A stretch of DNA of 64,000 nucleotides from Anolis carolinensis (taxonomy: Eukaryota). The stretch's first letter is position 1, and every line of letters starts with the position of its first letter. Positions 3,165 through 64,000 of this stretch are shown here, piece after piece. A model generated the notes under the pieces. The model was not told the origin of the DNA. It did not search any database and was given only the letters and a program-made list of their open reading frames with translations. The position numbers were made by a program, and so were the translations under genes. The stretch spans positions 231,958,107 to 232,022,106 of the forward strand of contig NC_085844.1 of assembly GCF_035594765.1 (NCBI RefSeq), read 5' to 3'.

Positions 3165-3670
3165 TTGTTCTTAGTTGACATCAAGTCAACTTTGACTTAT
3201 GGAGACCCTATGAATGAGCAACCTCTATTTCTTTGATAATCAACTGACCTTCCCAAGTCATACAAAGTCAGGACCATATCTTTCTTTATTGAATCAATGC
3301 ACCCGTAATATGGGTTTCCTATGACCTCCACTGCCACTCACTTTGTTGTCTTTTCCAGAAGTCATGCCATGTCATCATGTGTCCAGATACAACATTCTCA
3401 TTTTAATAATTTTGGCATGTGGTGAACATTTAGACCAGATTTCTTCTAGGGCCCTTAATTTTTTTTACCAGTCCACAGTATATTTGAATGCAATTTTCCT
3501 GCTTCTTGGCAGGGGGTTGAACTGGATGGCCCAAGAGATCTTTTCCAACTCTATGATTCTATGATTCTATCTGTAGAGCTCTTTTCCAGGACTACATTTC
3601 TAATGTCTTTTCTTCCTATCAGCTTTCTTCACTGTCCAGCTTTGACATCCACATGTAGAAATCAGATATG
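3165..3670 (-). mobile_element. RTE-clade LINE 3' fragment, degenerate, interrupted by a CR1 tail
   Basis: Minus-strand translation gives RTE ORF C-terminal remnants GCQSWTVKKADRKK (~3610-3655) and GNPYYGCIDSIK (cf. GRPxxRWIDSIKE, ~3283-3320), followed by an RTE-type 3' tail near 3165-3215. Confidence 0.7.
3484..3570 (+). mobile_element. CR1 LINE 3' UTR fragment inserted into the RTE copy
   Basis: TTCCTGCTTCTTGGCAGGGGGTTGAACTGGATGGCCCA...TTCCAACTCTATGATTCTATGATTCTAT closely matches the 3' end of the CR1 at 40320-40416, including the octamer tail. Confidence 0.9.
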
Positions 3671-4254: not shown

Positions 4255-4404
4255 GACTCTTTCTACACAGCTGAATAAAATCCCAAATTTTCTGTTTTGA
4301 ACTGGAATATATGGCAGTGTGGACTCAGATAACCCAGTTCAAAGCAGATATTGTGGGTTTTTCTGCCTTGATATTTTGGATTATATGGCTGCGTGGAAGG
4401 GCCC
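4255..4404 (-). mobile_element. Palindromic MITE, PIF/Harbinger-like
   Basis: Imperfect TIRs (GACTCTTTCTACACAGC...GCTGCGTGGAAGGGCCC) flanked by TCA/TCA (4252-4254, 4405-4407); inverted copy of 4752-4890. Confidence 0.75.
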
Positions 4405-4751
4405 TCATAGCTAATTTTGGGTATGTCATGTATGTTAGGGGTCTGTTTTATAGTGCTTTAATCATGCTTCATTGGCTTTCCTTTGGCTATACGAGCTTTC
4501 TTGCTCTGTTTATCCCATGCAAGTGTACCTACTATGCAATTTAGTTGTAGCATGCTTCAAATGGCAAAATGTCAGTAAATATTTTGAAAACTGGAAAGAT
4601 GCCATAATGATGTGGTTAATATGTCAGTGGGACTATGAAACATTTCAGGTTCTGGCTGGTTTTAAAAGAGCTATCAAAGGTGCTAAAAGAACGAACAGCA
4701 CTTTGGATAGCTCCTTCGAAATGTGGATTAAAACCTGGGTTTACCAACTAA

Positions 4752-4890
4752 GGGCCCTTCCACACAGCCATATAACCCAGAATATCAAGGCAGATAATCC
4801 ATAATATCTGCTTTGGACTGGGTTATATGAGTCCACACTGCCATATGATCCAGTTCAATGTGAATTTTATATAGCTGTGTGGAAGGGGCC
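4752..4890 (+). mobile_element. Palindromic MITE, PIF/Harbinger-like
   Basis: TIRs GGGCCCTTCCACACAGC / GCTGTGTGGAAGGGGCC with TAA/TTA flanks (TWA target typical of Harbinger). Confidence 0.8.
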
Positions 4891-8635: not shown

Positions 8636-10890
8636 TTTACTGGGACAGAAAAGGGCCAGTCTCTGTGCAGACATGGTGATGTTTGGAAATAGCAGTAATC
8701 ATTGTTATTATATTATAATATTATTTTAATTTATATTTCATATCTGGCTATAAAAACTGGGACACATTACTGCAGGTAGTATGGATGCATTAGTGATCTG
8801 TGGAGCTCAAGGTTGATGCAAAGTTATCTTAACATTAAGACTGAACACAATGATGTTTGCATATGTGTGTGTATGAAAGCAGATATTTGAAACTTGGAAT
8901 GACTGAATATATTGATCAATTTGCTGATGAATGTGTTCAGTTTCAGCTTAGAAAATAAAATGCTAATTGTATTGCATAATGAGTGTTTCGAAAATAAATC
9001 AGCAAAACCAAAGGTCTGGCCGAGCTTCTTAGAGTAATTTGAAAGGATCCTACAGAATTATAAAGACTCTAATAAATACCGGTTTAAGGAATTTTGAAGA
9101 CTCATATAAATACATTAACTGTTTAAAACATTGCAGTCTTATATGCGTGTCTACTCAGTGTACTCACTGGGGCTTATATGCTATGGTAAATGGATGGAAG
9201 ATTGCAGCTTAAATATTGTAATTAATAGGGAAGTGATAAAATTATCACTGCATGTTACATTTCTACTGTCCATTGACTCACCAGCTGAGTGGTAGTGCTA
9301 TGCACTCACTTAAAATCCACTGATGAAATGGGGCTGGTTTACTTGAAGTTAGAAATTCGATTTTGACCCGTGAGAGTTTTTTCTTCTTCTGTATATGAGT
9401 TTAATTCAAGAAAATCACATAGGCTAAAGTGTATACTGATATTGTTTTGCCACAGTTCTACAGAAAAATAGAAAACATAGTTCTAGGTCTCTGAAAATTC
9501 CTTTATTGATGTTAAAGAGGAATTGTGTGCTAATAACCTTTAGCAAATCTCCAAAAGGAAGGCATTCTAGGGTTATTGAAATAACAAGATAGGAGATCAT
9601 CACCCAGAGCATGCTTATAAGACCATGTAGTTCAAAAAATATTTCATATGGGTAGGGTTGTCCTATTGCCCAATTGGCAGGTTTTATCTGAGTACTAGGC
9701 ATGCCAATACAGTGCTACATTAGACTGTTTGCTGGCCCAGATTCCAAGCATTGTATTTTTTAGAAGCAATAACAACAACAACAACAACAAATCTTTAGCC
9801 TTGTAGAAGCAGAGATAACAACCAAAATGTGTAGATACTATTCTGTACTATACTTTTATGAGATATAAGCCTTCCACTGCTTTTCTGCATGTTTTACCAA
9901 TTGACAGAAGTCTCAAAGCTATGGCTATGATTTTTCATAGATTTATCATTCCAGTTCTCTCCCAATTCACTGAGTAATTGTTGCAGTTTTGGGAATGAAC
10001 CTGGTTTTTAAGGAAACATCTAACTGAAGCCTGCTTTTCAAGTCTTGAAAAAATTGCACAGAAGCACTGGAGTCATTGGAATGACTGTGGTACAAGAATG
10101 TAACACAGCAGAGTAGAAACTGCTAATCCTAAAATACAATTATTAATATTTGTGTTACGCCGGAATGTATTGTTTTGGCTGAGTTGCTTTTTCTTGACAT
10201 ATTTGCTTGACATGTTTGCTTGCACATTTCCTTTATACAGTGCATTTTTAAGGAATTTCCAGGGGGAAAAACCTAATTTTTGTTACTAAGGGTAGCTTCA
10301 CTTCTCCCACTGTCTGATATGGGAGAAAAAAAACAGTCCTCCCAATTATTGCCACTTTGTCTCCACTTTTCTCCTTCTGTCCATTGCCTCTGCTTATTTT
10401 TACTTTTCTTATCTCTCTCTCTCTCCTTTCTGCTGCTCCATCTCTGCTGAACACGTTAAATTAAGGTAGCATGTTTGGTATGGATGTAAAGAAGGCATTT
10501 TCAATGTAACTACTTCCAAAAGGCAGTGAAACTGTTTCCGTTGCCCTTTTGCCTTTCAGGCAAGACATGTATTTTATTCAGGCAGGTTTTTGGGAATGGG
10601 CTGGCTACAGAGGAAGTGGATTCAAACTGATAGGTGCTCCATATTTCTTTTTCAACGTCTTCATTGCTGCTTTCCAGTTTTATAATTCTGTAATTGCTCT
10701 TTAAATATAAGTCATGTACAAACACGCATATTTATTTACAGTGAATGCCCCCAGGTCCTGAGATTTTCAGGTTCAAAGGTGGAATTGATGAATCTAAAAC
10801 ACCATAAATCAATAAAATAGACCAATAGATAGAACAAGAAGAAAAGCCATGATTCAGTGGCAGTAGTTGTTGCAGCTACTGGTAGTTGTG

Positions 10891-11151
10891 ATGCCTCATG
10901 GGCCCTGTAGTCCTGTTCCTAGTACTATTGTGGCAGATGAAGATGAAAACATGGGGTTTTCGCCGGTTCAACAAGAGCCGGAGTCTCTTCACCTGCCGGA
11001 TGTTGATGTTTGCTCTCAAGAATTCAGTAAAACAGGCCTTGGGCAGAACTCCCCTCCATTTCCCAGGAAAGAATCTTATTCTAGAGACAGAGGAGTTAGA
11101 GAGGCCCAACGGAGGAGTTTACGGATCGCTGCCAAACAACAGGCTGATTAG
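10891..11151 (+). CDS. Putative LTR(U3)-encoded 86-aa peptide, or C-terminal tail of a retroelement ORF, with an RRSLRIAAK motif (outer copy)
   Basis: Open from the first LTR base to a TAG shared with the inner copy; no indels; 14 synonymous-only versus 11 amino-acid-changing codons between copies (manual alignment). No expression evidence. Confidence 0.6.
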   Translation: MPHGPCSPVPSTIVADEDENMGFSPVQQEPESLHLPDVDVCSQEFSKTGLGQNSPPFPRKESYSRDRGVREAQRRSLRIAAKQQAD

Positions 11152-11188
11152 GCCTGCTTCCCTTGGGAAATTCTAAGGAGTCTTTGTG

Positions 11189-11449
11189 ATGACTCATGGG
11201 CCTTGTAGTCCTGTTCCTAGTACTATTGTGGCAGACGAAGAGGAAAACATGGGGTTTTCGCCGGTTCAGCAAGAGCCGGAGTCTCTTCACCTGCAGGATG
11301 TTGATGTTTGCCCTCAAGAACTCAGCCAAACAGGCCTTGGGCAGAACTCCCCTCCGTTTCCCAGGAGGGAAAATTATTCTAAAGACAGGGGAGTCAGGGA
11401 GGCTAATCGGAGAAGCCTGAGAATTGCTGCCAAACAAATGGCTGATTAG
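11189..11449 (+). CDS. Putative LTR(U3)-encoded 86-aa peptide with an RRSLRIAAK motif (inner copy)
   Basis: Same length, frame and stop as the outer copy; internal ATG at 11249 in strong Kozak context (AACATGG). Confidence 0.6.
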   Translation: MTHGPCSPVPSTIVADEEENMGFSPVQQEPESLHLQDVDVCPQELSQTGLGQNSPPFPRRENYSKDRGVREANRRSLRIAAKQMAD

Positions 11450-11534
11450 GTCTGCTTCCCTTGGGAAATTCTAAGGAGTCATGCATCTGGACAGAGTTGG
11501 GTTTCGCTTCTCGTTCTCTTGGGAAAGAGTTCTG

Positions 11535-11573
11535 TTGGCGGGAAAACGAGACCCAATATAGGTGTTTGGCGCG
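11535..11573 (+). promoter_or_regulatory. Putative LTR core promoter: E2F-type site, CCAAT/TATA-like box, E2F-type site
   Basis: TTGGCGGGAAAA (11535-11546), CCCAATATAGG, TTTGGCGCG (11565-11573). The first site and the box are conserved in the outer LTR (12107-12118 onward). Confidence 0.45.
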
Positions 11574-12714
11574 AGGGATTCTTTGCGGAGTCAATTGATC
11601 AGCTTGAGGAGAGAGATCGTGTGTGGACTTCGTAATCCCAGTTCCTTGCTTCCCGGATCAAGCTTCAAACCTTGCCCTGTCTCACGGTTTTACCACGGAC
11701 TCTGTTCATGCTTCATGTTCGTCTTGTCTCCAGTCACGGATCTAGTCAAGAATCAAGTTTATTTCCAGCCTTGTTGTCAAGCTTCATTGGACTCTAAGAC
11801 TCTGTTATTTCCCCACACTATTGCTTGGCAAAGTGTGTGTTTCGGTCAAGTGGATTAAAACTTTGAACTCTAATATCTTATATTGGACAATACATTTCTG
11901 GACTATATTTGACCTCATCTGAAAGGTCTGCTTCTGAACTATATTCTTCACTTGTTTTTATTGATTTTATATATTTCTTTAATAAAGATATTAGATAGAG
12001 ACTGGCCTCTGTGTAAGGTTATTGGTGCTCTGCAGCCAGGGACCTGACAGTCTTGCATCTGGACAGAGTTGGGTTTCGCTTCTTGTTCTCTAGGGAAAGA
12101 GATTTGTTGGCGGGAAAACGAGACCCAATATAGGTGTGTGGCGCGAGAGATTCTTTGCGGAGTCAATTGATCAGCTTCAGGAGAGAGATCGTGTGTGGAC
12201 TTCGTAACCCCAGTTCCTTGCTTCCGGATCAAGCTTTCAAGCCTTTGCCTTGCCTTGCCGTGTATCCACGGACCCTGCTCCACGTTTCACGTTTTGCCTT
12301 GTTTCTAGTCACGGACCTAGCCAAGAACCAAGTTTATTTCCAGCCTTGTTGTCAAGCTTCATTGGACTCTAAGACTCTGACATTTCCCCACACTATTGCT
12401 TGGCAAAAGTGTGTGTTTCGGTCAAGTGGATTAAAACTTTGAACTCTAATATCATTTATTGGACAATACATTTTTGGACTATATTTGACCTCATTTGAAA
12501 GGTCTGCTTCTGAACTATATTCTTCACTTGTTTTTATTGCTTTTTAATATTTCCTTAATAAAGATATTAGATAGAGATTGGCCTCCGTGTACGGTTATTG
12601 GTGCCCAGCAGCCAGGGGTCTGACAGTAGTTTTTGTAAAGTTCGGTCTAAACCTGAGAGACAGTTCACTATCTCACTGATATGGAATCCATCATTAAAAA
12701 GTTCCAGTTTCTAT

Positions 12715-14260: not shown

Positions 14261-14976
14261 ATCTAAAGCTCAACCCTGGCTTTCCCCTGTTGTCCAAATA
14301 CCATAATTAAAATATACTTCTATATGTTATTATCCTGAATAGGAGGCAAAGGCATTAATTTAACATTTTATATCTAAAATACACAAAACAGTTACCCACA
14401 GCCCCAGGAAAATTTATTGATTGATTTGGGAGAATCCCAATATAACAGAACTTAATCCTTCTTTATTTTATTTGATCTTGTTTATTTTATCTTAATGAAG
14501 TGGATTTCCTCCTTCTGTTTTTCAAGCATGGCATAAAATTCTGGACAGTCATTAGCAAGCACTGATTAAACAGCAATGTGACTTGTTATGTTTTATAGCA
14601 AACACTTAAGAATGTTTGTAAAACCACTGATAATGTATCGAAAGCATGGAAAATTTCATACCTTTTTTGAACCCATTGGAAATTGTAGTGCCATGAGGAA
14701 TTTTTTTTAAGTCCCTTCCAGCGATGGTTTTGATTTGAGCTTTTCATCCATTGTTGGACTACATGGATTTCTAAAAAAGAAAAAAAGAGAATTTTAATGG
14801 ATGTTTCAAAAACCATTTTTTCTGCATTTTTAAAAAGTGCTGTTGTTGTTTGTTTGCTTTAAAGCAGAGGTTCTAAAGACACCTATGTTATCAAAGTTGT
14901 AAAGTGAACATTTTGCAATAAATCTCTGAAGTGTCTGAGAAAAAAAATAGTGAGGGGGGTTGTGTGGAAAATATGA

Positions 14977-15181
14977 NNNNNNNNNNNNNNNNNNNNNNNN
15001 NNNNNNNNNNNNNNNNNNNNNNNNNNNNNNNNNNNNNNNNNNNNNNNNNNNNNNNNNNNNNNNNNNNNNNNNNNNNNNNNNNNNNNNNNNNNNNNNNNNN
15101 NNNNNNNNNNNNNNNNNNNNNNNNNNNNNNNNNNNNNNNNNNNNNNNNNNNNNNNNNNNNNNNNNNNNNNNNNNNNNNNNN
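14977..15181. other. Assembly gap
   Basis: Run of N. Confidence 1.
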
Positions 15182-15248
15182 TAAACGGGCCGGCAGAAGC
15201 TTGGATACACACACACACACACATACACACACATACACACACACATAC

Positions 15249-15565
15249 ACAGTCTCACTAATCCAAGCTAAACGGGCCGGCAGAAGCTTGGATAAGTGAA
15301 TATCTTGAATTATAAGGACTGATCAAGAAAAAGCCTATTAAACATCAAATTAGGTTATGATTTTACAAATTAAGCACCAAAACTTCATGTTATACAACAA
15401 ATTTGACAGAAAAAGTAGTTCAATACGCAGTAATGTTATGTTGTAATTACTGTATTTACGAATTTAGCACCAAAATATCACGATATATTGGAAACATTGA
15501 CTACAAAAATGGCTTGGATTATCCAGAGGCTTGGACAAGCGAGGATTGGATTAGTGAGACTCTAC

Positions 15566-15567
<2 letters not shown>
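15249..15567 (-). mobile_element. Tc1/mariner-type MITE (~320 bp), opposite orientation to 48420-48742
   Basis: TIRs AGTCTCACTAATCCAA / TTGGATTAGTGAGACTCTACTG; body is the reverse complement of 48420-48742; flanked by (CA)n and (TG)n. Confidence 0.9.
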
Positions 15568-15601
<34 letters not shown>

Positions 15602-37854: not shown

Positions 37855-39646
37855 ACTCTTTGTTTTCCTTTTTACAGAAGAAATACACATGTGTTACTCA
37901 AAGTTATAAGCACATATGTCATTCATAGGATTCCAGCCAATATTTTTCAGTGAATTCTGTTCCTAATCAGTCATCTCAGGATGAATGTACCTGGCACAAA
38001 GAATATTTCCTGGCCGTTGTGGTGATAATTATCATGTGATAATGCTGTGGTTTAATTACCATGTGATAATGACTGTGACAAGGAACATCCTTTAATTGAA
38101 CAATGTACCCTTAATTTGTTAACCTGAAATGCCAGTGATTGAAACTCTTCTTGCCAAGTAGCAAGAAGACAAGGTGGATCTTCAGATTTAGAGATACTCT
38201 CCAAAGGAGAACAGCGCACAGGCATGGGCTACCAGCTCTGATTTTGGAGACCAAATGTGCTACAGTAGAACAAAAAATTAAATGGTAGAAAGACCAGAAG
38301 TTTCAAGTGTGAATGTGAGGACAATTCAAATTTATATTCCAAGACATTGTTCTCATTAGTAAATTATTTGATTCCAAACTTAGAGCTCATCTTATGTGGG
38401 CATGATAACTCATACACACACACGAGTTTGATCCTGGTTGTTTTCACAATTTTCCTCCACCTCCAGTAGGTATTCCTGCTTCTTTTTGATCGTGTGGGCA
38501 ACTACTGGTGTCTGAATGAGATGCCCATGGCGACCAGGACTCACATAGAGCTCTGCTGAAGTTTGGTAGCAGTGAAGGCAATATGGATGGTAAAGTGACA
38601 ATCCAGCAGGGTTGATGCAGTCTCAGACCAACTGGACTAGCTGGACTCCAACTCACCATTGGGGACAGTGTGGGTAACTGCCTCTGGACTAACCCAGACT
38701 GCCTGACAAGTGTAGAAGCAATGTAAGTCCTACTTAGAATAGGACCATTGATCTATTAATCATAACTAACTTAACTCCCACTGATTTCCATGGGTTTTTT
38801 TTCCCTGAAGAAACCTGGTAACAACACTCCAGTTGTCTCAAGTGTTCCCAATTATGATTGTGATTTAGGGATTAGGGAATGAAATGTTTGTTAAAAGGAT
38901 TATTAAACAAAAGTGAATTTGGCAAATTGATATTTAGCATTCTTGGGCTGCTTTTATTGTGTGTGGGATTGCTGTTTTATGTTTTCTTCCAGTGGATTTG
39001 GTTTTTAGGTAATTTTATGTGAGTGTAACAAGGATGCTATTTTATTACATAGGTATATTGCTTCATGTACATTGTGAAGGAACATGCCATTAAGAATACT
39101 TCAATATTCCAGTTGCTAAAATATGTGGAAAATTTGAAAATAATAAATGTCACATTCATATTTTAAATTTATATTGTACTCAGGCATACAAAAGGTTCCC
39201 TCTCTTGTTCCTTAAGGCAGATAGGGGGCAATGTAGTCCACATGACATTCAGTTGTGAGTACAAAAAACAGAAAAAGGCACACACACGGAGGCTAGGTGT
39301 CTGGTATTAAACTGAAAATTGCCATCATACATTGCACTCAAAGGATGCCAAAAATGGTCACTACTATATGTCAGCACCAATACGTTTTTTTTTTTTTAAA
39401 AAAGCAATCAAGAAAAATTGGTCACCTCAAAAGAGGCTGAAAGATGATGTGGGTTTGCATTTTAAATAAAAAATTTCTACAATTACATATATATTAATTA
39501 AACATTATTTTTCAAGTACAAGTGACTAACAATTCTAAATTATAACCATGAACCAATCAACTTCTTAATATTTTGAAACTTAAAATAGTTCTGCAGTACT
39601 GTGACCAATACCGGCTCAGTCTGATGCCCCAAAGCCAACTAGCCAA

Positions 39647-40416
39647 CAAGATACTTCATTTCGGCAGAAAAAATGGAAATCAAAGATACAGAATGGGGGA
39701 CGCCTGGCTTGACAGCAGTGTGTGCGAAAAAGACCTTGGAGTCCTCGTGGACAACAAGTTAAACATGAGCCAACAATGTGATGCAGCAGCTAAAAAAGCC
39801 AACGGGATTCTGGCCTGCATCAATAGGAGTATAGCGTCTAGATCCAGGGAAGTCATGCTCCCCCTCTATTCTGCCTTGGTCAGACCACACCTGGAATACT
39901 GTGTCCAATTCTGGGCACCGCAGTTGAAGGGAGATGTTGACAAGCTGGAAAGTGTCCAGAGGAGGGCGACTAAAATGATTAAGGGTCTGGAGAACAAGCC
40001 CTATGAGGAGCGGCTTAAAGAGCTGGGCATGTTTAGCCTGCAGAAGAGAAGGCTGAGAGGAGACATGATAGCCATGTACAAATATGTGAGGGGAAGTCAT
40101 AGGGAGGAGGGAGCAAGCTTGTTTTCTGCGGCCCTGCAGACTAGGACACGGAACAATGGCTTCAAACTACAGGAAAGGAGATTCCACCTGAACATCAGGA
40201 AGAACTTCCTCACTGTGAGGGCTGTTCGGCAGTGGAACTCTCTCCCCCGGACTGTGGTGGAGGCTCCTTCTTTGGAGGCTTTTAAGCAGAGGCTGGATGG
40301 CCATCTGTCGGGGGTGCTTTGAATGCGATTTCCTGCTTCTTGGCAGGGGGTTGGACTGGATGGCCCATGAGGTCTCTTCCAACTCTACTATTCTATGATT
40401 CTATGATTCTATGATT
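39647..40416 (+). mobile_element. Young 5'-truncated CR1 LINE (RT C-terminal region and 3' UTR)
   Basis: Uninterrupted frame EKDLGVLVD...[19 protein letters not shown]...[12 protein letters not shown]...WNSLP to the native stop at 40320-40322; (ATTCTATG)n tail; CpGs retained. Confidence 0.97.
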
Positions 40417-40856: not shown

Positions 40857-41621
40857 CAGTGGAGTTATGGTTATTTGACAAAAACGGGTGGGCCGAATGT
40901 CGAATAACTGGAACTGATGGATAATAGGGGGGCCATATTATCCCTCATGGCAATCAGGTTTGGGGAAGTGCCCTGTGTACATTGCTGCCTAGCAACGCAC
41001 AGGGGGCGCTTCCCAAGGGGCGAGTGCTCGCTGGAGCTATGGGGCTCATCCCTATGGCAAGTACTCAGCTCAGGGAAGTGCGCCATGAGGGCTGCTGCCT
41101 AGCAACACTCATAGGGTGCTTCCCAAGGGGCGAGTGCTCACCGGAGGAACGGGGCTTGTTCCTACGGCAAGCACTTGGCTCAGGGAAGTGTCCCATGAGC
41201 TCTGCTGCCTAGCAATGCACATGGGGCGCTTCCCAAGAGGCAGATGCTCACCAGAGCAACAGGGCTCATCCCTACAGTGAGCACTCGGCTCAGGGAATTA
41301 CCCCTTGAGCTCTGCTGCCTAGCAACATTCACAGGGAGCTTCCCAAGGGGTGAGTGCTTGCTGGAGCAACGGGGCTCGTCCCTACAGAGAGTACTCAGCT
41401 CAGTGAGCTCTGCTGCCTAGCAACACTCATGGGGCACTTCCCAAGGGGTGAGTGCTCACCGGAGTGATGGGGCTCATCCTTACAGTGAGCACTCGCCCCT
41501 TGGGAAGTGCCCCCTGTGCATTGCTAGACAGCAGAACTCACGGGGTGCTTCCCAAGGGCCTGGCATGTCGGATAATACGGATGGTCGGATAACCGGAAGT
41601 CAGTTAACCGGAACTCTATTG
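40857..41621. mobile_element. Tc1/mariner(Tigger)-type MITE containing a 110-bp tandem array
   Basis: Termini CAGTGGAGTTATGGTTA / TAACCGGAACTCTATTG with TA on both sides; internal units begin TGCTGCCTAGCAA at 40983, 41093, 41203, 41313 and 41411. Confidence 0.8.
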
Positions 41622-48203: not shown

Positions 48204-48419
48204 AATATTTTACTTACAAGTTGTTCCTGCCAGAAACTGAGCCTCAAGAGAGGTATTTATTTTGACTTTTTAAAATGAAAATAAAGAAGTTGGTAGAAAA
48301 GCTGGGAAACCATCAAGCAATGTTATTGTAGCAAAGAGGAAGGATGTCACCTTCTACGGGAACTGACATAGGATCAAACTTGAGATCTAAGGATCCCAGT
48401 TATAAGTAGAATAAAAGTA

Positions 48420-48742
48420 CAGTAGAGTCTCACTTATCCAAGCCTCACTTATCCAAGCCTCTGGATAATCCAAGCCACTTTTGTAGTCAATGTTTTCAAT
48501 ATATCGTGATATTTTGGTGCTAAATTCGTAAATACAGTAATTACAACATAACATTACTGCGTATTGAACTATTTTTTCTGTCAAATTTGTTGTATAACAT
48601 GAAGTTTTGATGCTTAATTTGTAAAATCATAACCTAATTTGATGTTTAATAGGCTTTTCCTTAATCCCTCTTTATTATCCAAGATATTTGCTTATCCAAG
48701 CTTCTGCTGGCCCGTTTAGCTTGGATAAGTGAGACTCTACTG
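48420..48742 (+). mobile_element. Tc1/mariner-type MITE (323 bp)
   Basis: Perfect TIR CAGTAGAGTCTCACTTATCCAAGC / GCTTGGATAAGTGAGACTCTACTG; TA duplication at 48418-48419 and 48743-48744. Confidence 0.95.
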
Positions 48743-63924: not shown

Positions 63925-64000
63925 TGAACATTGACAAGCTGGAATATATCCAGAGGAGAGCACCCGGAATTGTAAATGGTCTAGAAACCAAGACCCATGG
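63925..64000 (+). mobile_element. CR1 LINE RT fragment running off the window
   Basis: Translates as IDKLEYIQRRAPGIVNGLETKTH, equivalent to [22 protein letters not shown] in the young CR1. Confidence 0.85.

Follow-up and report, generated by a model that had tools for sequence, protein, structure and literature searches.

The locus

A 64,000-nucleotide stretch of the Anolis carolinensis genome (assembly GCF_035594765.1, contig NC_085844.1, positions 231,958,107 to 232,022,106, called the window in its whole length) carries, at 10887-12625, two nested solo long terminal repeats (LTRs) of one Anolis chromodomain-bearing Ty3/Gypsy retrotransposon family. Each of them contains a copy of an 86-codon open reading frame (ORF). 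A previous inspection of the letters, the sequence-only reading, had taken the ORF product for an LTR peptide ending in an HMGN-like candidate nucleosome-binding motif, RRSLRIAAK. Our results identify the ORF, with near certainty, as the C-terminal tail of the family's integrase and not as a separate gene, and point to selection on the motif at the protein level.

Self-comparison of the window gave the repeat order A-A'-B'-B across the locus. Each LTR is flanked by its own exact 5-bp target duplication and both have TG...CA ends; the features are collected in Table 1. A simple tandem duplication was rejected on the repeat order and the presence of two target duplications, and a DIRS/Ngaro split-repeat element on the TG...CA ends, the target duplications and the integrase relatives described below. 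No further copies of the LTR or ORF and no internal element sequence were found in the 64-kb window, and Rfam and tRNA scans of the window gave no matches. The solo-LTR copies are probably remnants that make no peptide. Papers are cited by PMC number; each was available in part, and what is said of it refers to that part.

Table 1. Features of the nested LTR locus, in window coordinates (TSD, target-site duplication; U3, unique 3' region of the LTR)
Feature	Positions	Strand	Remark
Outer solo LTR TSD, left copy, 5 bp	10882..10886	.	identical to 12626-12630
Outer solo LTR 5' part, starts TG, U3 coding integrase tail, split by inner LTR	10887..11184	+	89% identity to inner LTR start
86-codon ORF copy 1, orphaned integrase C-terminal tail	10891..11151	+	ATG within LTR terminus
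HMGN-like motif RRSLRIAAK copy 1, codons 74-82, stop four residues later	11110..11136	+	
Inner LTR 5-bp target site within outer LTR, left copy	11180..11184	.	identical to 12050-12054; about 30 nt past stop codon
Inner solo LTR, 865 bp, TG...CA, same family, nested in outer LTR	11185..12049	+	
86-codon ORF copy 2, integrase tail	11189..11449	+	75/86 residues identical to copy 1
HMGN-like motif RRSLRIAAK copy 2	11408..11434	+	
AATAAA near inner LTR 3' end, likely poly(A) signal	11981..11986	+	late position as in Sushi-type LTRs (PMC3601003)
Inner LTR TSD, right copy	12050..12054	.	exact 5-bp match
Outer solo LTR 3' part, ends CA	12055..12625	+	8% divergent from matching inner LTR part, 6 indels
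Outer solo LTR TSD, right copy	12626..12630	.	exact 5-bp match

Two short words are preserved in both LTR copies: one on the minus strand overlapping the stop codon (11144-11152 and 11442-11450), which we take to be CCAAT-box-like, and one after the stop (11165-11174 and 11463-11472), presumably NF-kB-like. About 200-250 nt into the non-coding 3' part lies a second patch that varies between the LTR copies (16 of 50 columns).

Identity of the LTR-coded open reading frame

A Pfam search with both ORF copies returned no family at E up to 10, HMG14/17 included, and no relatives were found among proteins of similar length. The tail had no match in the PDB; in the ESM Atlas its best score was 0.78, below the lead threshold, and a query of chromodomain plus tail returned chromodomain clusters only. 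The search of longer proteins, in which the best matches were all from Anolis carolinensis, yielded five models that hold the peptide at the very C-terminus, two of them with integrase SH3 and chromo domains directly upstream.

Database searches and cluster look-ups together gave at least 61 proteins, including 15 listed from a 33-member cluster and 15 listed from a 17-member cluster. Three were dropped: P0007, one of four representative-library matches and a repeat-driven chance match to an unrelated protein; P0058, a fragment of 46 residues; and P0018, from another species, Rhineura floridana, which shares the chromodomain, splices into a host gene ahead of any tail and is uninformative on the tail. 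The remaining 58 were examined. A chromodomain core is present in 47, and 41 of these continue into the LTR-coded tail, 36 as far as the motif; of the five that fall short of it, four are truncated and one loses homology about 22 residues into the tail. The other six chromodomain models end at or before the junction. Among the 11 models that lack the chromodomain core, four are host-gene models running into a solo LTR.

The tail, of 84-96 residues in the annotated protein models, is reached through a 23-residue linker after the chromodomain, and chromodomain Trp and tail Met lie 55 residues apart in all 36 models that reach the motif. In P0003 a tail at 83% identity comes after zinc finger, rve, SH3 and chromo domains; PF00665, PF24626 and PF00385 occur in that order, above curated cut-offs, in P0003, P0042 and P0035. 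Reverse transcriptase (RT) and RNase H lie additionally upstream in P0042, P0035 and P0060, completing the Ty3/Gypsy order RT, RNase H, zinc finger, integrase core, SH3, chromodomain. The best solved relative in a PDB sequence search was Ty3 Gag-Pol (E 2.7e-145).

In full integrase models the junction reads S-V-M, and the window LTRs start T-GTG-ATG in the same frame (Val codon at 10888-10890); the Gly/Glu-rich residues ahead of S-V-M would correspond to the polypurine tract. The fixed spacing between chromodomain and tail, together with this continuity of frame, indicates that pol reads into the U3 of the 3' LTR and that the window holds orphaned copies of the tail. The LTR peptide of the sequence-only reading is therefore not an entity of its own.

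In P0015, P0016, P0055, P0056 and P0057, which make up a sister subfamily, the chromodomain differs slightly and the models stop at the LTR junction; in P0055 an LTR-like start is read, but in a different frame. A tail-less sister family was rejected as a claim: these five and P0017 merely end at or before the junction, so that absence of the tail is not shown. The tail or the whole integrase is also contained in Anolis gene models P0001, P0002, P0005, P0006 and P0019, which comprise two ATP13A-type ATPases, a LINE RT fragment, an NCBI uncharacterized locus and a "calmodulin-lysine methyltransferase" isoform. These are probably annotation chimeras; exonisation of a candidate nucleosome-binding tail is possible.

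Family placement

By domain order, chromodomain and LTR ends the family is a chromovirus; the window itself holds solo LTRs only, and the pol order comes from the relatives. A full-length chromodomain Ty3/Gypsy element of Anolis carolinensis has reportedly been described by Piskurek et al. (PMID 19118606), to go by the title, and may be of the same family.

The vertebrate chromoviruses of the V clade (Sushi-ichi, Amn-ichi, Amn-ni, Amn-san) share with the Anolis family the order RT-RNase H-integrase-SH3(GPY/F)-chromodomain (PMC2774666), as well as TG...CA LTRs, a late AATAAA and a 5-bp target duplication (PMC3601003, PMC2774666). The available parts of these two papers describe no LTR-coded tail with an HMGN-like end after the chromodomain, such as the Anolis family has. 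Host and domain order of the Anolis family agree with what PMC2774666 describes. Sushi LTRs have the end motifs TGTYANR and CNTNACA and a late AATAAA (PMC3601003). At the 5' end the LTRs of the window have G at the Y position, and CNTNACA fits the inner LTR and not the first base of the outer one.

Extension of the gag-pol ORF into the 3' LTR occurs in plants, in CRM group A, Beetle7, Bingo1-4 and 7 and some Reina elements (PMC3059260, PMC3605345). The LTR of CRM group A includes the code for a putative targeting domain (PMC3059260, PMC3605345), and the Anolis family likewise runs into its LTR. In that group, however, a CR motif, whose partner PMC3059260 gives as unknown, replaces the chromodomain, whereas the Anolis family keeps a chromodomain with an intact cage and the LTR adds a second module. 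Compared by description, it is not a member of CRM group A.

Selection on the motif

Comparison of the two window copies confirmed that codons 75-79 differ at seven nucleotides (1+1+2+2+1), with double changes in one Leu and one Arg codon, and that every difference is silent, as the sequence-only reading had stated. When seven substitutions were placed at random in these codons, none changed a residue in 16 of 200,000 trials at a transition weight of 1 and in 10 of 200,000 at a weight of 4. When any run of five codons was scanned, seven silent differences appeared in 0 of 20,000 trials, in a test that also rewards clustering.

Of the 31 nucleotide differences between the copies over the whole ORF, 17 are synonymous and 14 non-synonymous, and dN/dS is 0.20-0.28 (Fisher p 3e-5 to 7e-4); leaving out codons 74-82 weakens the signal (0.36-0.50, p 0.02-0.08). 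For the remaining two sense frames the ratio was 1.35 and 1.83. It was 0.27 in the antisense frame with the same wobble position, yet an antisense ORF was rejected because each copy has five stops in that frame. CpG decay was likewise rejected as the origin of the silent changes, since only 5 of the 31 differences touch a CpG. No indel separates the ORF copies, compared with six in the non-coding 3' part. These comparisons support selection on the encoded residues of the motif.

The differences are concentrated toward the end of the ORF, in its final third (11061-11151 and 11359-11449), with 20 in 91 nt versus 11 in 170 nt (p 5e-4). From this clustering the motif-coding stretch is probably of deeper ancestry than the rest of the LTRs, which would be mosaic, and exchange between subfamilies is suggested. 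Deeper ancestry would account for the large number of silent changes, and selection for their all being silent. At nine of the 11 residues where the window copies differ, both variants turn up again in other copies; these are thus lineage differences and not decay, and the two LTRs come from separate family lineages.

Conservation of the tail

Conservation was measured on 38 tails, from 36 models and the two window copies, equivalent to about six effective sequences in one shallow clade; four host-gene chimeric models were excluded from the motif count. Tail lengths are mostly 84, 86, 91 and 96 residues and pairwise identity goes down to 0.38. Across eight representatives, identity is 90-97% in the SH3-chromo part, 52-91% in the linker and 46-82% in the tail.

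The motif R-R-S-[A/L]-R-I-A-A ends five residues from the C-terminus of the tail, and its mean entropy is 0.21 bits versus 0.94 for residues 9-73. R74, R75 and S76 are each present in 37 of the 38 tails and R78 in all of them (motif positions 1, 2, 3 and 5), as are I79 and A81, with A80 in 36. Position 77, the fourth of the motif, varies between Ala (20 tails) and Leu (18), a state that needs at least two changes on a tree of tails built without the motif; position 82 is K in 31, R in 6 and G in 1. Conservation in related LTR subfamilies had been named beforehand as a test, and the motif was found in 36 of the 37 models with a tail long enough.

The remainder of the peptide had been described as acidic and Pro/Ser-rich. 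This is true of the first two thirds (residues 1-45 contain nine D/E, no K/R and 12 P/S) and fails for the C-terminal 30 residues, which have a net charge of +5; over five tails the last 30 residues carry +5 to +6 and the remainder -8 to -12. Three S-P sites had also been noted: residues 7, 24 and 54 have them in both window copies, with 7 and 54 conserved among the tails and S24 not. Further conserved blocks lie at residues 3-8, which adjoin the LTR end, and at 16-21, 34-35 and 54-59 (10897-11067), and include S-P-x-F-x-R and the two conserved S-P sites.

Likeness to acidic-patch binders

Judged by its residues, the motif is a fairly likely ligand of the H2A-H2B acidic patch, in the manner of HMGN, Dsup and Dot5. 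When the tail was shuffled, 96 of 200,000 trials produced the pattern RRSxR[ILV]. In HMGN2 the contacts with the patch are made by R23 and R26, and in Dsup by R363, R364, S365 and R367; the fourth residue of the motif is not named as a contact in either structure in the available part of PMC12487698. The positions that are fixed among the Anolis tails are therefore those that make contacts in the HMGN2 and Dsup complexes, and on this ground the motif is likened to the HMGN-like class. Yeast Dot5, with RRSARIAT, binds nucleosomes via three arginines and requires the acidic patch (PMC13347269).

The resemblance is closer than the window copies had suggested, because 20 of the 38 tails have Ala at the fourth position, as do HMGN and Dot5. 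The Ala form is identical to Dot5 at seven of eight residues and the Leu form of the window at six; for HMGN (RRSARLSA), of which the exact core is not matched, the figures are six and five. Leu at position 4, found in both window copies, is absent from HMGN, Dsup (RRSSRLTS) and Dot5. All three share with the Anolis tail the R-R-S-x-R-hydrophobic spacing in an acidic/basic low-complexity setting; the Anolis motif instead sits on a retrotransposon integrase, where it would confer nucleosome binding. It is not an HMGN protein: that family consists of small free-standing proteins with an HMG14/17 domain, whereas the Anolis segment is an integrase tail with no family match.

Viral tethers offer a functional parallel. 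LANA of Kaposi's sarcoma-associated herpesvirus, IE1 of human cytomegalovirus, the chromatin-binding sequence of foamy virus Gag and probably p12 of murine leukaemia virus (MLV) use a short arginine anchor to tie a mobile genome or pre-integration complex to chromatin, as is proposed for the Anolis tail, and foamy virus integration is redistributed once Gag no longer tethers (PMC9040877, PMC11054761). These tethers differ in being on Gag or latency proteins and not on integrase, with no reader of histone marks in the same chain in the descriptions available (PMC9040877, PMC11054761).

A proposed two-point grip on the nucleosome

In P0004, chromodomain residues F157, W178 and F181 align with the Y, W and F of the HP1 cage, and they are invariant in 21 of 21 aligned models. 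Type I chromodomains have three aromatic cage residues as in HP1 and are the type that recognises H3K9 methylation (PMC3059260, PMC12477314). Since its cage is intact, the Anolis chromodomain may read methyl-lysine on H3. We consider it somewhat likely, from sequence comparison, that the integrase grips nucleosomes twice, through this chromodomain and through the HMGN-like arginine anchor.

The proposed mechanism is as follows. Pol would run past the chromodomain, via the 23-residue linker, into the U3 of the 3' LTR, adding a tail of 84-96 residues that is acidic and Pro/Ser-rich first and basic at its end, and that closes with R-R-S-[A/L]-R-I-A-A. R78, the fifth residue of the motif, would be the arginine anchor and R74/R75 a second anchor, with S76 hydrogen-bonding to the acidic patch. 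With the chromodomain on H3 methyl-lysine and the anchor about 110 residues further on, the nucleosome would be held at two points by a long flexible tether, which could aid chromatin capture and bias insertion toward silent chromatin. Phosphorylation of the serine could switch the anchor off, as modelled for S24 of HMGN2 (PMC12487698).

The inner LTR inserted about 30 nt past the tail stop codon of an LTR of its own family, a case of self-nesting and possibly of self-targeting. LTRs are usually avoided as nesting targets in plant surveys (PMC12477314). The self-nested insertion fits a bias for silenced chromatin, but it is a single event.

Several observations weigh against the integrase-tail and nucleosome-anchor interpretation, or narrow it. 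The integrase models are automated annotations and any single one could contain a splicing artefact; a shared artefact is unlikely because the spacing is fixed over many loci. All tail-bearing relatives among the matches listed are from Anolis carolinensis, and searches of similar-length proteins, longer proteins, the representative library, clusters and the ESM Atlas gave no tail homologue outside this species. The motif is short (5-8 residues), the pattern used to pick it was written after the sequences had been seen, and in the excluded chimeric models R78 is replaced in one and R74 in one. Nor is it the only conserved block: residues 3-8 score best (0.16 bits), and conservation extends to 16-21 and 54-59. 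No strict sequence rule governs binding to the acidic patch, and whether similar motifs bind differs from structure to structure (PMC10606924). The AlphaFold2 model of P0004 has a mean pLDDT (predicted local distance difference test score) of 37, does not recover the chromodomain and places a helix over the motif at a pLDDT of about 50. The Dsup segment straddles H2A helix 2, unlike this weakly predicted helix (PMC12487698); AlphaFold 3 fails on the HMGN2-nucleosome complex (PMC12487698). Finally, the sequence-only reading had seen an Aurora B consensus, here taken as [R/K]-x-S-large hydrophobic. This was not supported: the R-x-S-large hydrophobic pattern occurs at the motif in only 17 of 38 tails, which speaks against a phospho-switch via Aurora B, and a similar pattern arises somewhere in the sequence in 4,926 of 20,000 tail shuffles.

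Alternative explanations

The basic end of the tail could be a signal for nuclear import or for nucleolar or nuclear retention, like the C-terminal nuclear localization signal (NLS) of Ty1 integrase. A non-infectious element must bring its own cDNA into the nucleus, and the Anolis tail is basic, C-terminal and flexible. The Ty1 signal is known (reference titles in PMC3605345), but K-[K/R]-x-[K/R] occurs in 0 of 38 tails, the two window copies have no bipartite pattern, and Lys, on which classical NLSs centre, is not among the residues that stay fixed (Arg, Ser, Ile and Ala), the sole Lys being the variable residue 82. An import role, which could still use an Arg-rich signal, is unlikely. Docking on another host protein, a tethering factor, is similarly unlikely. 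Integrase tails of Ty1 and MLV do tether to other proteins, RNA polymerase III and BET proteins respectively, and short conserved motifs at integrase C-termini are the usual tether site (PMC7459421, PMC10050235, PMC4027182); I79-A80-A81 is conserved past the five residues resolved in HMGN2, and the weak helix is predicted there. Dot5, however, also has I-A next to its core, so that this pair fits the HMGN-like class, and Leu-dependent motifs (D-box and cyclin-docking RxL) fail in the 20 tails with Ala.

It is improbable that the basic end binds nucleic acid (target DNA, intasome cDNA ends or genomic RNA) or pairs with the acidic half as an auto-inhibitory switch. The opposed charges of the two parts of the tail would suit such a role, and Dot5 and Dsup also bind DNA through other segments (PMC13347269). 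Plain charge would, however, tolerate exchange of Arg for Lys, and among the 38 tails there is neither such an exchange nor a shift of spacing at 74, 75 and 78, while the basic residues at 60-70 vary freely; the fixed arginines therefore count against it. Less probable again is a free 86-residue peptide, translated from the ATG of the ORF in LTRs and solo LTRs as an additional or even the main product and acting in trans as an HMGN mimic. The Met is present in 38 of 38 tails and host gene models P0001, P0002, P0005 and P0006, one of them an NCBI model, run into the tail. Yet U3 lies upstream of the LTR's own start site, the window frame is closed 9 and 5 codons upstream of the ORF copies, and 41 of the 47 chromodomain-bearing models read straight on from the chromodomain in this frame. 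The ATG, moreover, lies in the LTR terminus and may be kept as an integrase recognition end, CRM chromoviruses mostly starting TGATG (PMC3059260). Conservation of the stretch as DNA, as a U3 promoter or enhancer site with an incidental peptide, would agree with its place in U3 next to the CCAAT-like and NF-kB-like words; it is effectively refuted by the silent changes, 7 of 15 nucleotides differing while all five residues stay, and by the absence of indels from the ORF.

Other features of the window

Outside the LTR locus, a 232-codon ORF and related copies (39624-40416, 59049-59642, 63860-63999 and 3495-3570) end in an 8-bp tandem tail; the ORF has no Pfam match, and we take the repeat to resemble the 3' end of a CR1 long interspersed nuclear element (LINE). 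A dispersed repeat of about 300 bp occurs in four copies, in both orientations and two of them in tandem, with flanking TA runs (15251-15591, 48419-48738 and 54509-55174), and presumably resembles a non-autonomous DNA transposon. The element at 4297-4858 has long inverted arms of 63 and 50 nt, 90% complementary, and is, we assume, like a miniature inverted-repeat transposable element (MITE). A GC-rich 110-bp tandem array of about five copies, also self-complementary, spans 40963-41558. Runs of N (assembly gaps) fall within ORF calls at about 14970-15190 and at 29300-29700.

Meaning for chromoviruses and their host

Taken together, our tentative proposal, to which we give slightly less than even weight, is that a vertebrate LTR retrotransposon evolved, inside its own LTR, an HMGN-type anchor on its integrase, used with an HP1-like chromodomain as a two-point nucleosome reader. 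In the literature found, no HMGN-like or acidic-patch motif in a retrotransposon integrase is reported, though the Anolis chromovirus paper remained outside our reach, and no LTR-coded tail in a vertebrate chromovirus is reported, though older chromovirus papers (Piskurek, Gorinsek 2004, Kordis 2005) may already note the extended ORF. The available part of PMC13524379 contains nothing on lizards.

If the proposal is true, the family would provide the first example of an HMGN-like motif in a mobile element and of an integrase with an acidic-patch tether. It would make a fourth, independent case beside the three known HMGN-like motifs, within the "untapped realm" expected by PMC12487698. The tether that foamy virus puts on Gag could then sit on integrase instead, and there would be a hint of what LTR-coded extensions of integrase, like the plant CR motif region, may do. 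Should binding fail, the family would remain a clear reptilian example of an integrase extension that is coded in the LTR and under selection.

Insertion-site choice of vertebrate chromoviruses is not addressed in the literature found, and a chromodomain combined with an acidic-patch anchor offers a concrete and cheaply testable mechanism for it. For the host, thousands of solo LTRs would leave ready-made nucleosome-binding tails for its genes to pick up.
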